From Leptothrix sp. (in: b-proteobacteria) (lineage in GTDB: Bacteria; Pseudomonadota; Gammaproteobacteria; Burkholderiales; Burkholderiaceae_C): 64,000 bases of DNA. The notes under the pieces are model-generated. The model was not told where the DNA came from. It saw only the letters and a list, made by a program, of their open reading frames with translations, and did not search any database. Position numbers and translations under genes: made by a program. Position 1 is the first letter of the stretch. The number at the start of each line of letters is the position of its first letter. Location: the NCBI GenBank assembly GCA_013822685.1, contig PNKV01000013.1:13095-77094 (forward strand), written 5' to 3'. Positions 1 through 7,500 of the stretch are shown here, piece after piece.

Positions 1-768
1 CGTGAGTTTGAGCTCCTGGGTCAAGGCCTCGATGGCGGCCTCATCCGAAGTCTCCCGCATCACCAGCAACCAGTTGTCGTCGCCGGTGGGTTCGTGCAGG
101 GCGAAGCTCAGGCGCCGACCACCTTGCTGCACCAGCCAGGATGGTGGCGGCTTGCCCGTGGCCATGTCGGCCAGGGCGCTGGGCGTGACCTGGCGCAGCC
201 ACACCACCAGCTCATCGGGGGCCACGGTCTCGGGCGTCTCGAAGTACTGCTGCAAGAGCTTGCGCGCCAAGGGCGTCTGCCACATCACGCGGCCATCAGA
301 AAGGCGCACCGTCATCGATGCGTGGCCAAAAGCGTCCAGGGCATTGCGGGCCTGGCGCGCCTGCCGGGCACTCGCCATGTGAGAGACGATGCGGGCCAGC
401 ACTTCCCGGGGCCGGATCGGCTTGGTGACGTAGTCCACGCCGCCAGCGTCGAAGGCGGCCACCACGTGCTCGGTCTCGGTCAGGCCCGTCATGAAGACGA
501 TGGGGATGTGGCTGGTTTCGGGCTGGGCTTTCAGGCGGCGCGCCACTTCGAAACCATCCATGCCGGGCATCAGGGCGTCGAGCAGGATGATGTCGGGCAC
601 GGACTGGCTGGCGCGCTGCAGAGCGGCTTCGCCATGCGTGGCGACCAGCACCGTGTAGCCGGCTTCGTCCAGCGCATCGTGCAAGAGCGAGAGGTTGTCG
701 GGCACGTCATCAACGATGAGCACGACGTCGGTGCGGCTGCGGTCGAGTCGGTCAAGCATCGGGATCAT
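1..768 (-). CDS. Response regulator (REC plus probable LuxR-type HTH), 3'-truncated by the window edge
   Basis: Manual translation from ATG 768: MIPMLDRLDRSRTDVVLIVDDVPDN...IILLDALMPGMDG...DYVTKP...EALTQELKLT. Start overlaps the kinase stop (ATGA). Absent from the ORF track because it has no stop in the window. The HTH itself lies beyond the edge and is inferred. Confidence 0.85.
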   Translation of the reverse strand, partial: MIPMLDRLDRSRTDVVLIVDDVPDNLSLLHDALDEAGYTVLVATHGEAALQRASQSVPDIILLDALMPGMDGFEVARRLKAQPETSHIPIVFMTGLTETEHVVAAFDAGGVDYVTKPIRPREVLARIVSHMASARQARQARNALDAFGHASMTVRLSDGRVMWQTPLARKLLQQYFETPETVAPDELVVWLRQVTPSALADMATGKPPPSWLVQQGGRRLSFALHEPTGDDNWLLVMRETSDEAAIEALTQELKLT

Positions 769-3700
769 GGCCGCGATTGTGCATGGAACTGCACCAACGC
801 CCGCTTGACGGCATCGGCCAAGGCGTCCAGCTGGAACTGCCTGGCCAGGTGGCGCATGTTTTGCACAAAGACTTCGCATTGCGGTTCGGCCGCCGCGATC
901 TGGTCCAGTGTTTTGTGCACACCGCGCACGTAGCCCGCGTCGATCAGCTCTTCCAGGCTTTGCAAGGCCTTGAGCGATGGCAGCACCTGCATGCCGTCGC
1001 CCGCCGCACTTTGCGCGACGGCGTCCAGCATGGGCTTGCCAATGGCGGGGCGCTGAGCCTCGATCCACTGCAAGGTCAGGCGCCGACCCAACCAATCCAG
1101 CAGTTCCGCCTTGCGCACGGGCTTGACGATGAAGTCTTCGAAGGTGATGCCCACGTCGTTGTCCATGCCCTTGTCAAAGGCGTTGGCCGACACGATCGCG
1201 ATCGGCGCGCGGCTCAGTCCTTCCTGCTTGATGGTGCGGATCGTGGCCCAGCCGTCGATGCCCGGCATGGCCAGGTCCATCAGCACCGCATGGGGCTCTT
1301 GCGCCTGCGGGCAACTGCGCAACAGGGCCAGGCACTCCAAACCTGACGCCAGCGGGGTGACATCAAAGCCCAAAGGCTCGAGGATGCGCACGAGCAGGCC
1401 ACGGTCGGCCTCTTCGTTGTCCACCACCCAGACCCGGCGGCGGTCGCCCACATAGCCGGTGCGCACGCCCAAGGGCACGCTGCGATCGGCGTGCGTGAGC
1501 CGCACCTGCGGCAGGAACAGGCGGATGCGGAACACCGTGCCCTGCCCCTCCACGCTGCTGACCTTCATCTCACCGCCCATCAGGTCGGTGAGCATTTTGC
1601 TGATGGTCAGCCCCAGGCCGGTGCCTGCGACGGCCGAGCCCGCCACCGATGAACCGCGCGCGAAGGGCTCGAAGACCCGCTCAAGTTCGTCAATCGGGAT
1701 GCCCGGCCCGGTGTCGATGACCTCGACCAAGGCAATCTCGCGCGCATAGCTGACGCGGAATTTCACCCCACCGTGCGCTGTGAACTTCACCGCGTTGCCC
1801 AACACATTGAACAGGATCTGACGCACGCGTCGCTCGTCGGCCCGCACCACCTCGGGCAAGGCCGCGTCCAGCTCCACGTCAAAGCTCAGGCCCTTGCTCA
1901 AGGCCTGAGGTTGCAGCATGTTGATGATCTGCTGCAGCGACTCGAACAGGCGCATGGGCTTGACGTCCAGCGTCAGCTTGCCGCTTTCTATGCGGGCGAT
2001 GTCCAGCGTGCCTTCAATCAAGGACAGCAAATGGTCGCCGCCACGCTTGATGACCTCCACCCCATGCCTGGCATGCTCGGGCAGGCGTTGATCCTCGTCC
2101 AGCAACTGCGCATAGCCCAGGATGCTGTTGAGCGGCGTGCGCAGCTCGTGGCTGATGGTCGAGATGTAGCGGCTCTTGGCCTGGTTAGCCTGCTCGGCAG
2201 TGCGCTTGGCCTGCTGCAGTTTTTCGTCAGTGCGCCGGTGCAGTTCCACCTCGCGCACCAGCAGGTGCGTCTGGCGGTTGGATTCTTCTTGCGCCACCTT
2301 GCGGCTCTTGTGCGCCAGCACCAGCCACCAACCCACCACCCCCGAGATCACCAACAGCACCGCAAACACCTTGAGGAAGCCGCTTTGCAGCGCATCGGTC
2401 AGGCCTGCTGTGGCCGGTTGGTCCAAAGCCCGCAACTCGTGGTTGAAGATCAGCGCGAACAGCAACGCCAGCGCGGGCACCAAGCCCCCCATCAACAGCA
2501 TGAAATGGCCAAGCTCGGTGTCCAGCCGTTGCCAGACAAAGGCCGGCAGCAGCTTCTTACCCACGGCCCGCCATTGCACCGACCAGCGTGCTTCAGGCTT
2601 GCACAAATCATGGCAGCGCGCATCCAGCGAACAGCACAGCGAGCAGATGAAGCCCTGGTAGGCCGGGCAATGCGCCATGTCCTCGCCTTCGTACTCGCGC
2701 TCGCACACCGTGCAGCGGTAGACGCCCTTGGTGCCTTGCCGGGACGGGCAGGTCTCGCAATTGGGTGCCTTGAGCTCGGCTTGGCGGGCGATGTAGTAAC
2801 GCCCCTGGGTGAACCAGGCGATCAGCGGCGAGGTGACCAGCGCCGTGACCAGTGCGATCAGTGCTGAGAAGGCCTGCGCCATCGGCCCCAGCCAGCCCAG
2901 GTAGGCCGTGACCGACAGGATGGACGCCGCGCTCATGGCACCCACGCCCACCGGGTTCACGTCATACAAATAAGCCCGCTTGAACTCGATGCCCTTGGGC
3001 GACCAACCCATGGGCTTGTTGATCACCAGGTCAGCCACCACGGCCATCATCCAGGCGATGGCAATGTTGGAGTACAGCCCCAGCACACGCCCCAGGGCCT
3101 GGAACACGTTCAACTCCATCAGCATCAAGGCGATCATGGTGTTGAACACCACCCAGACCACGCGCCCAGGGTGGCTGTGGGTGATGCGCGCGAAGAAGTT
3201 GGACCACGCCAGCGAGCCTGCGTAGGCGTTGGTGACATTGATCTTGAGCTGCGAGATGACCACGAACAGGCACGTGGCGGCCACCGCCCAGCTCAGGTTC
3301 GAGAACATGGACTCGTAGGCCAGCAGGTACATCTGATTGGGATCAACCGCGCGGTCGGCCGGCACCGACATACTCAGCGCCAGGTAGGCCAACACCGTGC
3401 CCCCCAGCATCTTGAGCACGCCGGGAATCACCCAGCCCGGCCCGCCCATGAACACGCTGAACCACCAGCGCGCCTTGTGCTGGGCTTGCCGCTCGGGCAT
3501 GAAGCGCAGGTAGTCGGCCTGCTCGCCCATTTGCGTGATCAGGGCCACGCCCACCGTCATGGCCGCGCCAAACGACATCAGGTTGAACCCCGGCGCCTGC
3601 CCTTGTGCACCGCCATAGCCCACCAGGTCGCTCAGCACATGCGGGTTCGCCTTGAACACGTAGATGTAAGGCAGCACCAGCATCACCAACCAGATCGGTT

Positions 3701-4328
3701 GCGTCCACACCTGCAATCGGCTGATGACGGTGACCCCGTGCGTGACCAGCGGCACCACCACCACCGCGCAAATCAAATAGCCCCAGGCGGGTGGGATGTC
3801 GAAGGCCAGCTCAAGGGCGTAGGCCATGATCGCGGCCTCCAGCGCGAAGAAGATGAAGGTGAAGGTGGCGTAGATCAGCGAGGTGATGGTGGAGCCGATG
3901 TAGCCAAAGCCCGCGCCGCGCGTCAGCAGGTCCATGTCCACGCCATGGCGCGCCGCGTACACACTGATCGGCCAACCGGCCAGGAGGATGATCAAACCCG
4001 TGGCCAGGATGGCCCACAAGGCGTTGATGAAGCCGTGCTCCACCATCAGGGTGGCGCCCACCGCTTCCAGCACCAAAAACGAGGCCGCGCCGAAGGCGGT
4101 GTTGGCCACCCGCCATTCGCTCCATTTGCGGAACGACCGGGGGGTGAAGCGCAGGGCGTAGTCTTCCAGGGTTTCGCTGCCAACCCAGGTGTTGTAGTCG
4201 CGCCGCACCTTGACGACGCGTTGCAAGGCCTGGTCTCCCAGCAAATCGGCCGAAGACGCCCCTCCGGCGGGCGGCAGCTCATCAATACGCCGTTCGGCGG
4301 CTGGACTCATTTGGCGTGTGTCTTGCAT
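765..4328 (-). CDS. Hybrid sensor histidine kinase with N-terminal NCS1/APC-like permease domain, Cys-rich linker, HisKA-HATPase and REC
   Basis: About 12 hydrophobic segments, then ISHELRTPLN (H box), NVLGNAVKFT, DTGPGI, GTGLGL and REC LMDLAMP...FIVKP. Start is 4328 or 4310 rather than the track's 4397. Confidence 0.9.
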   Translation of the reverse strand: MQDTRQMSPAAERRIDELPPAGGASSADLLGDQALQRVVKVRRDYNTWVGSETLEDYALRFTPRSFRKWSEWRVANTAFGAASFLVLEAVGATLMVEHGFINALWAILATGLIILLAGWPISVYAARHGVDMDLLTRGAGFGYIGSTITSLIYATFTFIFFALEAAIMAYALELAFDIPPAWGYLICAVVVVPLVTHGVTVISRLQVWTQPIWLVMLVLPYIYVFKANPHVLSDLVGYGGAQGQAPGFNLMSFGAAMTVGVALITQMGEQADYLRFMPERQAQHKARWWFSVFMGGPGWVIPGVLKMLGGTVLAYLALSMSVPADRAVDPNQMYLLAYESMFSNLSWAVAATCLFVVISQLKINVTNAYAGSLAWSNFFARITHSHPGRVVWVVFNTMIALMLMELNVFQALGRVLGLYSNIAIAWMMAVVADLVINKPMGWSPKGIEFKRAYLYDVNPVGVGAMSAASILSVTAYLGWLGPMAQAFSALIALVTALVTSPLIAWFTQGRYYIARQAELKAPNCETCPSRQGTKGVYRCTVCEREYEGEDMAHCPAYQGFICSLCCSLDARCHDLCKPEARWSVQWRAVGKKLLPAFVWQRLDTELGHFMLLMGGLVPALALLFALIFNHELRALDQPATAGLTDALQSGFLKVFAVLLVISGVVGWWLVLAHKSRKVAQEESNRQTHLLVREVELHRRTDEKLQQAKRTAEQANQAKSRYISTISHELRTPLNSILGYAQLLDEDQRLPEHARHGVEVIKRGGDHLLSLIEGTLDIARIESGKLTLDVKPMRLFESLQQIINMLQPQALSKGLSFDVELDAALPEVVRADERRVRQILFNVLGNAVKFTAHGGVKFRVSYAREIALVEVIDTGPGIPIDELERVFEPFARGSSVAGSAVAGTGLGLTISKMLTDLMGGEMKVSSVEGQGTVFRIRLFLPQVRLTHADRSVPLGVRTGYVGDRRRVWVVDNEEADRGLLVRILEPLGFDVTPLASGLECLALLRSCPQAQEPHAVLMDLAMPGIDGWATIRTIKQEGLSRAPIAIVSANAFDKGMDNDVGITFEDFIVKPVRKAELLDWLGRRLTLQWIEAQRPAIGKPMLDAVAQSAAGDGMQVLPSLKALQSLEELIDAGYVRGVHKTLDQIAAAEPQCEVFVQNMRHLARQFQLDALADAVKRALVQFHAQSRP
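4311..4327 (+). promoter_or_regulatory. Putative sigma54 promoter for ureA
   Basis: TTGGCGTGTGTCTTGCA, GG at 4313-14 and GC at 4325-26 (12-nt offset), about 55 nt before the ureA ATG. Confidence 0.65.
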
Positions 4329-4355
4329 AGTGGGTACTTCATCAACGGCCGTTGC

Positions 4356-4372
4356 CGCAATTTCGGTGCCGA
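4356..4372 (-). promoter_or_regulatory. Putative sigma54 promoter for the sensor kinase/response regulator operon
   Basis: Minus strand TCGGCACCGAAATTGCG, GG 4370-69 and GC 4358-57. Confidence 0.65.
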
Positions 4373-4381
4373 GAACAACAA

Positions 4382-4684
4382 ATGGAACTGACCCCACGAG
4401 AGAAAGACAAATTGCTGATCTTCACGGCCGCCCTGCTGGCCGAGCGGCGCAAGGCCCGGGGACTCAAGCTGAACTACCCGGAAGCCGTGGCCCTGATCAC
4501 CGCCGCCATCATGGAAGGGGCCCGCGACGGCAAAACCGTGGCCACCTTGATGAGCGAAGGCAAGACCGTGCTCAGCCGCCATGACGTCATGGACGGCGTG
4601 GCCGACATGGTGCCTGAAATCCAGGTGGAAGCGACCTTCCCGGATGGCACCAAATTGGTGACAGTGCACCAACCCATTGCTTGA
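4382..4684 (+). CDS. ureA: Urease subunit gamma
   Basis: [14 protein letters not shown]...KLNYPEAVA...[17 protein letters not shown]-type sequence. Confidence 0.98.
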
Positions 4685-4704
4685 GATGACTCATACATCT
4701 TGAA

Positions 4705-4723
4705 TTGCACCAATCAAGTGCAA
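4705..4723. promoter_or_regulatory. Putative NtrC-type binding site
   Basis: TTGCAC-CAATCAA-GTGCAA; TGCACCA-N3-AAGTGCA versus consensus TGCACCA-N3-TGGTGCA; lies in the AT-richer ureA-ureJ gap. Confidence 0.6.
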
Positions 4724-4759
4724 TCAAACTCATCCACGCCTCACCCTGGATTCAAGAAC

Positions 4760-5428
4760 ATGCCGAAAACCTCCTTCCGCCGCACCATCGTGGTTTGCGC
4801 TCCGTGGGCCGCCGGTCTGGCTGCGGCCACCCTGACCTCCGTGGCGCAGGCCCACGTGGGCGCCGATGGCCTGGCCCATCAGCATGGCGCCTTTGACAGC
4901 TTCACGGCGGGTGCGGCCCACCCCTTGACAGGGCTGGATCACCTGGCCGCCATGGTCAGCGTGGGCTTGTGGAGCGCCTTGAGCCTGCGCCCTCAATCAA
5001 CACCAGCCGCCAGCGCCAGGCAGCTGCTGGCCGCACCTCTGGCGTTTGCCGCCACCTTGCTGATCGGTGCCTTGATGGCGCTCAATGGCCTCACTTTGCC
5101 CGGTGTAGAACCCATGATCGCGGCCTCGCTGTTGGCCCTGGGGCTGCTGGTGGCCACGCGCACCGCATTGCCGACCGGCGTTGGCGCCGCCCTGGTGGCC
5201 GGTTTTGCCCTGTCCCACGGGTTGGCGCATGGCCAGGAGCTGGGGGGCCACGCCAGCGCCGCACTCACCGGCATGGTCCTGAGCACCATGGCCCTGCACT
5301 CCGTCGGCATCGGCTTCGGGCTGGCATTGCGCCAGCAACGCAGACGCTGGCTGCCGCGCATCGCGGGCGTCGGTGTCGCTGCCTTGGGCCTTGGCCTCTT
5401 GAGCCCCGCCATCGCTGGCGTGTTCTGA
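4760..5428 (+). CDS. ureJ: HupE/UreJ family Ni transporter/accessory protein
   Basis: Signal peptide, AH..., HPLTGLDHL and HGLAHG motifs. Confidence 0.92.
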
Positions 5429-5439
5429 GGAGCGCCACC

Positions 5440-5745
5440 ATGATCCCCGGCGAACTCCTCACCGATGGCCCCGACCACCCCCTCAACCCAGGCCGCCGCA
5501 CCACCACCCTGGTCGTTGAGAACTCGGGCGACCGCCCCATCCAGGTCGGCTCGCACTACCACTTTGCCGAGACCAATGGCGCCCTGAGCTTTGACCGCCC
5601 AGCCGCGCACGGCATGCGCCTGAACATCGCCTCCGGCACCGCCGTGCGCTTCGAGCCCGGCCAGCAGCGCACCGTCGAACTGGTCGATTACGCTGGCGAT
5701 CGCATCGTCCACGGATTCCGCGGCCTGGTTCAAGGCCCGCTCTGA
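5440..5745 (+). CDS. ureB: Urease subunit beta
   Basis: MIPGE...[17 protein letters not shown]...[18 protein letters not shown] (C-terminal part of track ORF 4969..5745). Confidence 0.97.
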
Positions 5746-5772
5746 CCACCCTTTGCCAAGGAAACCACCCAG

Positions 5773-7500
5773 ATGGCCACCATCCAACGGCGTGCCTACG
5801 CTGAAATGTTCGGCCCCACCGTGGGCGACCGCCTGCGCCTGGCCGACACCAACCTCATCATCGAAGTCGAACAAGACTTGACCCTGGCAGCTGGAGGCTA
5901 CGGAGAGGAAGTCAAGTTCGGCGGCGGCAAGACCATCCGCGACGGCATGGGCCAAAGCCAGCGCATCAATGGCCCTGGCCCGATGGAGGCCGCCGACTGC
6001 GTGTTGACCAACGCCCTCATCGTGGACCACTGGGGCATCGTCAAGGCCGACATCGGCATCAAGGCCAGCCGCATCTTCAAGATCGGCAAAGCGGGTAACC
6101 CCGATGTGCAACCCGGTGTGGACATCGTCATTGGCCCTGGCACCGAGATCATCGCGGCCGAGGGCATGATCGTGACGGCCGGCGGCATCGACACCCACAT
6201 CCACTTCATCTGCCCGCAGCAGATCGAAGAGGCGCTCAACAGTGGCGTGACAAGCATGCTGGGTGGCGGCACAGGGCCGGCCACCGGCACCTTCGCCACC
6301 ACGTGCACGCCCGGGCCGGACAACATCTCGCGCATGCTGCAAGCCGCCGAGGCCTTCCCGATGAACCTGGGCTTTCTGGGCAAGGGCAACGCCAGCCGCC
6401 CCGAGGCCTTGCGCCAGCAGGTCGAGGCCGGCGTGATCGGCTTGAAACTGCACGAGGACTGGGGCACCACGCCTTCGGCCATCGACTGTTGCCTGAGTGT
6501 GGCCGAGGAAACCGACACCCAGGTCTCGATCCACAGCGACACGCTGAACGAATCGGGCTTCGTCGAGAACACCATCGCGGCCACCAAGGACCGCACCTTG
6601 TGCGCCTTCCACACCGAAGGCGCGGGCGGTGGCCACGCGCCCGACATCATGCGCGTGGTGGGCGAGGCCAACTTCCTGCCCTCGTCCACCAACCCGACCA
6701 TGCCCTACACGGTCAACACCATTGACGAGCACCTCGACATGCTCATGGTGTGCCACCACCTTGATGCATCGATCGCCGAAGACCTGGCCTTCGCCGAAAG
6801 CCGCATCCGCCGCGAAACCATCGCCGCCGAAGACATCTTGCACGACCTGGGCGCCATCAGCATGTTCAGCTCCGACTCGCAGGCCATGGGCCGCGTCGGC
6901 GAAGTCATCATGCGCACCTGGCAGACGGCCCACAAGATGAAAGCGCAACGCGGCGCCCTGCCCGGCGACTCCGAGCGCAACGACAACACGCGGGTGAAGC
7001 GCTACGTCGCCAAGTACACGATCAACCCGGCTTTGTCGCATGGCATCGCGCACGAAGTGGGCAGCATTGAGGTGGGCAAGTGGGCCGACTTGGTGGTGTG
7101 GAAGCCCGGTTTCTTCGGCATCAAACCCAGCCTGATCCTCAAGGGCGGCTTCATTGCTTCAGCGGCCATGGGTGATCCGAGTGCGTCCATCCCCACGCCA
7201 CAGCCGGTGCATTACAGGCCCATGTTCGGCGCGTTTGGTGGTGCGCTGGCGCAGGGTTCACTGACCTTCATGAGCCAGGCTTCGATCGACGCGGGCATGC
7301 CCGGTCAATATGGTTTGAAGAAACAGGCCGTGGCCGTGCGCGGCAACCGCAGCGTGAAGAAGGCCGACATGATTCACAACCACTACCTGCCGGTGATGGA
7401 AATCGACGCGCAAACCTACCAAGTGCGCGCTGATGGGCAGTTGCTGACTTGTGAGCCAGCCACCGTGTTGCCGATGGCGCAGCGTTACTTTTTATTCTGA
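5773..7500 (+). CDS. ureC: Urease subunit alpha
   Basis: [39 protein letters not shown] and [12 protein letters not shown] all intact. Confidence 0.99.

Follow-up and report, generated by a model that had tools for sequence, protein, structure and literature searches.

To our knowledge, sensor kinases fused to a transporter ("transceptors") are few, and a structure exists only for the SLC5/STAC pair of CbrA. In CbrA, a partly disordered linker of 30 residues leads from the SLC5 domain to the STAC domain, which docks in a pocket beneath the transporter and has been proposed to relay transporter motions (PMC13022988). We analysed a sensor kinase of Leptothrix sp. in which a small cysteine-rich module takes a comparable position: as in the STAC proteins CbrA and CrbS/MxtR, it comes after a LeuT-fold transporter-like sensor and a partly disordered linker of ~30 residues, ahead of the kinase. 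The STAC domain is a metal-free four-helix bundle, whereas the module is predicted to be a Cys8 knob made of a beta-hairpin and a short helix; the transporter is of the SLC5 type in CbrA and NCS1-like in the present family; and the module is followed by a transmembrane (TM) hairpin, which CbrA does not have at this place. With four short strands and one six-residue helix in the AF2 models, and beside an NCS1-like transporter domain, the module does not belong to the STAC domains. By analogy of position, the STAC domain of CbrA is its closest functional analogue, with an unrelated fold, and the relay of transporter conformation, which the earlier note on this DNA had suggested, appears to be the most plausible role of the module (PMC13022988).

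The window, that is, the whole stretch of 64,000 nucleotides that was analysed, carries on its minus strand an open reading frame (765..4397) whose translation is a hybrid sensor histidine kinase of 1210 amino acids. This class assignment follows from Pfam matches to HisKA (DHp; residues 740-806, positions 1980..2180, minus strand, E 3e-18), to the HATPase_c catalytic domain (residues 854-962, 1512..1838, minus strand, E 2e-26) and to a receiver domain, REC (residues 989-1101, 1095..1433, minus strand, E 6e-15). Pfam gave no match within the first 700 residues, and the ~110 residues after REC (residues 1102-1210, window positions 768-1094, minus strand) matched no Pfam or NCBIfam family; this helical-looking tail might be HPt-like or partner-binding. 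The nearest database protein, from Aquabacterium sp. CECT 9606 (P0002, 99% identical over the region searched), has 1181 amino acids, so the true start is probably the ATG of M30 at nt 4310 and not the GTG at 4397; the residue numbering of the 1210-aa protein is kept here. A start at nt 4310 would leave 4311-4397 as the promoter region.

The N-terminal part of the protein is a permease-like sensor domain with 12 TM helices (residues ~60-530, 2808..4220, minus strand). AF2 modelling of residues 60-720 (661 aa, with an alignment of 63 sequences) gave a mean pLDDT of 89.5 and a pTM of 0.90, with a pLDDT of ~90 in the permease-like domain. Through Foldseek searches, we found that the best neighbours of this domain were CodB (7qoa; E 7e-10, TMt 0.75-0.79) and Mhp1 (2jln; E 1.5e-9, TMt 0.70), at 16-17% identity, and that the predicted fold and the number of TM helices matched those of both proteins. 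The domain can thus be assigned to the NCS1 fold, as a 12-TM LeuT-type structure closest to CodB and Mhp1. Neither Pfam (E <= 10, Transp_cyt_pur included) nor NCBIfam (E <= 1) gave a matching family, no PDB sequence was matched, and the term permease-like is justified at the level of the predicted fold only. Unlike CodB and Mhp1, the permease-like domain of this family invariably carried the module and a signalling output behind it; stand-alone permeases of the subfamily were not seen in intact form, the short matches on long contigs being frameshifted or located at contig ends.

A hydropathy scan placed 12 TM segments at residues ~101-527, followed by a 104-aa loop with 14 K+R, two further TM segments (632-650 and 677-695) and the kinase, and the AF2 helices agreed with this assignment. 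Since two TM segments separate the loop from the kinase, the loop and its cysteines lie in the cytoplasm, as the kinase does; the earlier note had also called the module cytoplasmic. Its statement that the module comes directly after the last permease helix has to be corrected, because a variable linker of ~30 residues follows TM12 (residues 531-558, 2724..2807, minus strand). This linker opens with a conserved GRYY[IL]AR motif, contains indels among homologues, and was modelled by AF2 with a pLDDT of 52-56 and stretches below 50; in an alignment of 26 loci, its length and sequence varied freely. On the other side of the module, TM13 and TM14 form a two-helix membrane hairpin (residues ~628-695, 2313..2516, minus strand; hydropathy and AF2 helices H569-598 and H605-660 in model numbering), which brings the chain back to the cytoplasmic side and runs on as a signalling helix into the DHp domain.

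Translation confirmed that the ten-cysteine pattern CETC-x11-CTVC-x11-C-x7-CSLCC-x5-C-x3-C, reported in the earlier note at 2601-2759 between permease and kinase, maps exactly to residues 547-599 (nt 2759-2601, minus strand). Ten of the 15 cysteines of the protein thus fall within 53 residues; when 15 cysteines were placed at random 200,000 times, at least eight in one 53-aa window were obtained in a fraction of ~1e-5. The conserved unit is smaller, consisting of the eight cysteines C562-x2-C565-x11-C577-x7-C585-S-L-C588-C589-x5-C595-x3-C599 (residues 562-599, 2601..2714, minus strand; delimited by the alignments and by an AF2 pLDDT of 83-91). None of the eight varied among 109 full-length homologues, which were >=53% identical over the region searched; C547 and C550 were in nearly every case replaced by another residue or a gap. 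Solid matches were found in ~45 of 401 genomes searched across the phylum, all in open frames of ~890-1255 aa, and 26 of these loci, which were aligned and come from across Pseudomonadota, had the eight cysteines at identical spacing with zero indels. Other positions were also invariant or nearly so, namely Y/F569, E570, D573, P578, Y580, I584, S586, L587, L591, R594, D597 and K600.

We then compared a profile of the module with 1.84 billion representatives of 50%-identity clusters and obtained 411 proteins at E <= 1e-3. Among the best 150 of these 411, 136 contained all eight cysteines, the remainder being truncated or showing single deviations in fragments. Scanning 185,579 species genomes for the pattern showed that relatives of the module are encoded in at least 598 of them, and the eight-cysteine core was intact in all 80 named species genomes examined among these. 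Twelve of the 80 named species carried a ninth cysteine right after the CC pair (CSLCCC), a recurrent variant (loci L073-L152). Homologues that lack cysteines in pairs or quartets, which would group the residues into sites, were absent from the best 150 of the 411 representatives and from the 80 genomes. One locus (L076, CALRRO020000010.1) is labelled as a Chitinophaga pinensis MAG, and its module is 66% identical to this betaproteobacterial copy; mis-binning of the contig is the probable explanation, rather than membership in Bacteroidota.

The extra CxxC upstream of the core (C547 and C550, 2748..2759, minus strand) lies inside the variable linker, in a stretch with an AF2 pLDDT below 50. 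It was found in one of the 80 named genomes and in ~10 of 391 proteins compared, and is limited to the closest Aquabacterium-like relatives. The extra CxxC of the Aquabacterium lineage was added recently, within a disordered linker, and is dispensable for the conserved function. We therefore rejected the ten-cysteine unit in favour of the eight-cysteine unit, as C547 and C550 are not conserved in the 109 homologues or the 80 genomes. The earlier note had named a lack of cysteine conservation among homologues as grounds for giving up its idea: the eight cysteines of residues 562-599 passed this test and the first CxxC failed it.

The module was modelled with AF2 both in isolation (83 aa, 26 sequences) and within the 661-aa model. 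The isolated module reached a pLDDT of 87-90 for residues 557-586 and 63-74 beyond, and the whole core reached 83-91 in the 661-aa model, a gain that is not creditable to the context alone because the alignment of the latter was deeper (63 versus 26 sequences). The same secondary structure was predicted in both models: a beta-strand at 559-561, a turn with C562 and C565, a strand at 568-570, a strand at 574-577 ending in C577, a strand at 582-585 ending in C585, and a helix at 586-591 that contains C588 and C589, with C595 and C599 in the next loop. In these models, the CxxC knuckle, the hairpin and the two ligands at the helix start form the layout of a treble-clef zinc finger. Foldseek and VIA-align gave weak matches to known structures (E >= 0.28, Z <= 3.7), and binuclear zinc fingers (RING, PHD, FYVE, ZZ, B-box, LIM and C1) made up almost all of the neighbours found with these weak scores. 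The suggestion of a two-metal zinc finger in the earlier note fits the eight invariant cysteines, the predicted treble clef and these low-scoring fold neighbours.

Searches of Pfam, NCBIfam and PDB sequences gave nothing significant for the module, and no zinc-finger HMM was significant. The sole recurring Pfam hint was Prok-RING_1 (PF14446), which appeared in 4 of 26 members with a best E of 0.074; none of the 26 module sequences came near the gathering score of this family. TRASH, zf-FCS and YHS gave no Pfam match at E <= 10. The ESM Atlas returned one unnamed cluster at 0.79, which was uninformative.

With the cross-brace fingers (RING, PHD, FYVE, ZZ and Prok-RING_1), the module has in common eight putative metal ligands within ~40 residues and the predicted succession of CxxC knuckle, hairpin and short helix; the proposed order of its ligands is likewise interleaved. 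Its spacing, C-x2-C-x11-C-x7-C-x2-C-C-x5-C-x3-C, matches no canonical cross-brace signature and contains no His ligand, and its context is a membrane sensor kinase, whereas that of the cross-brace fingers is the ubiquitin or chromatin machinery. The single-zinc treble clefs of the TRASH, FCS and L24e type have the signature CxxC-x19-22-(F)CSxxC, which the C562-x2-C565-x19-C585-S-L-C588 part of the module resembles, but the four further invariant cysteines imply a second site that is absent from those families. Full-text literature searches found no study of the permease-Cys8 family or of the module, which is widespread and undescribed and probably a variant of a known theme, namely a coupling domain in a transporter-fused sensor.

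The position of the module was fixed throughout the family. It always came between the permease-like domain and the TM hairpin, around residue 470-560, whether the output was a kinase, a PAS-kinase or a PAS-GAF-GGDEF-EAL assembly. In a metagenomic representative of 1554 aa (P0263), the permease-like domain, the eight-cysteine module and the TM hairpin are followed by PAS-GAF-PAS-GGDEF-EAL, which may represent an amide or urea input into c-di-GMP signalling, and two other representatives have PAS domains inserted ahead of HisKA. As the module is kept after the permease-like domain with any output, it belongs to the sensor/transducer cassette and forms a unit with the sensor and the TM hairpin rather than with the kinase. 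Other protein contexts were absent from the best 150 of the 411 matches, which comprised only the permease-Cys8 family and its fragments. Recurring matches with the module at position 40 were considered as another context and rejected, because they start at an internal Met in TM11 and derive from cut or frameshifted genes.

Downstream of the kinase gene, a response regulator with REC and an unassigned C-terminal part is encoded on the same strand (1..768, minus strand), its ATG overlapping the kinase stop codon (ATGA) and its other end running off the window; the ORF scan of the whole window gave no match for it. Divergent from the kinase gene are the genes for UreJ/HupE (4700-5428, plus strand) and UreC (5773-7500, plus strand), and these divergent urease genes (4700..7500, plus strand) are the probable regulatory target of this kinase copy. 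A neighbourhood survey of 40 homologous loci (~±10 kb each) showed that homologues of the downstream REC regulator (38-66% identical) follow the kinase in most of them, and that a LuxR-type regulator replaces or accompanies it in some. A ureC gene was nearby in 8 of the 40 loci, and FmdA together with amide/urea-type ABC genes in ~27; a few loci had only a more distant Urt-like ABC system, and two lay on contigs too short to judge. The same genome also encodes a paralogue of 1156 aa (L003:8154-11624, minus strand), whose module is 57% identical with the eight cysteines invariant. It is followed by a LuxR/FixJ-type regulator (L003:7562-8179, minus strand), and divergent from it are genes for a Peripla_BP_5 binding protein, an ABC transporter and an FmdA/AmdA formamidase (L003:11758-18063, plus strand). 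Since the paralogue adjoins formamidase and the present copy urease, the organism has separate urease-linked and formamidase-linked copies. Judged by these neighbours, the family appears to sense urea and short-chain amides.

We consider it somewhat probable that the module is a structural two-zinc domain that links the NCS1-fold sensor mechanically with the hairpin of TM13 and TM14 and with the signalling helix. We infer that this cytoplasmic mini-domain of ~45 residues binds two structural Zn(II) in an interleaved, cross-brace-like treble clef. Site 1 would be formed by the C562/C565 knuckle together with C585 and C588 at the start of the short helix, and site 2 by C577, C589, C595 and C599. 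The metal would turn a segment that is too small to fold alone into a rigid knob, which would pack beneath the NCS1-fold sensor domain on its cytoplasmic face and pass the ligand-dependent conformational state of this domain on to the signalling helix and the kinase, by way of the amphipathic helices that come next and of TM13-TM14. Urea or a short-chain amide is the most likely ligand. The eight cysteines could also hold one Zn and one [4Fe-4S] cluster, a combination found in the CysA/CysB motifs of eukaryotic B-family DNA polymerases.

Other readings of the same cysteines were weighed against this coupling domain. Kinases with Fe-S or Zn-thiolate sensors exist (NreB, AirS and CZB domains), and some or all of the eight invariant cytoplasmic cysteines may likewise form an Fe-S cluster labile to oxygen or oxidants, or a zinc-thiolate redox switch, through which the kinase would integrate the redox or oxygen state of the cytoplasm with external amide. 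Sequence alone cannot separate Zn from Fe-S, and C577-x7-C585-x2-C588-x6-C595 loosely resembles Wbl-type motifs (C-xn-C-x2-C-x5-C). However, the predicted knuckle, hairpin and helix and the fold neighbours are of the structural zinc-finger type, Fe-S family HMMs gave no match to the module even at E <= 10, there is no obvious reason to redox-gate urea or formamide catabolism, and the module is kept with every kind of output domain. We regard this redox reading as unlikely. Similarly unlikely is its elaboration into a labile metal-thiolate or Fe-S switch that would act as an AND gate of the external nitrogen source and the cytoplasmic redox, oxygen or metal status; in the Aquabacterium lineage, the extra CxxC of two protomers might additionally form an inter-subunit zinc site.

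The knob might instead recruit a partner, such as the cognate response regulator, a PII-type nitrogen signal protein or the ATPase of the ABC transporter encoded nearby, without contacting the permease domain. Folds like RING, PHD, FYVE, LIM and ZZ typically serve in protein interactions, several invariant charged residues of surface type lie in and around the core, and a surface for sensing or for binding a partner could equally be what the invariant E570, D573, D592, R594, D597 and K600 indicate. The partner genes, however, vary by locus (LuxR-type or other REC regulators, urease or formamidase/ABC genes) with the module invariant regardless, and it is also kept in the GGDEF-EAL variant, where a response regulator is not required. 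We consider this reading unlikely too. That the present copy adjoins ureJ/hupE and ureC, together with the ability of Cys-rich sites to bind Ni, speaks for a regulatory metal sensor in which reversible binding of Ni (or another metal) gates urease induction on cofactor supply. This reading was rejected on the gene neighbourhood of the 40 loci, and we give it hardly any credence: in ~27 of the 40 and beside the paralogue of the same genome, the place of urease is taken by amide/urea ABC genes and an FmdA-type formamidase, and the module stays invariant there; the c-di-GMP variant (PAS-GAF-GGDEF-EAL) retains it too. As the module is unchanged with or without a nickel-enzyme neighbour, these observations argue against the link to nickel and urease drawn in the earlier note. 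All-Cys tetrahedral treble-clef sites are, moreover, typical of tightly bound structural Zn.

A two-zinc coupling domain would not be surprising in kind, given that zinc-stabilised linkers are common. How a transporter fold reports its bound ligand to a kinase is a standing question, and the combination of an NCS1 fold, a knob with probably two zinc ions and a membrane hairpin would be a second solution to it, unrelated to that of SLC5 and STAC. The permease-Cys8 family also offers a compact system for studies of transporter-to-kinase coupling. Its signature occurs in at least ~600 species genomes, and the loci examined adjoin genes for urea, formamide and amide uptake, which are important in nitrogen cycling.
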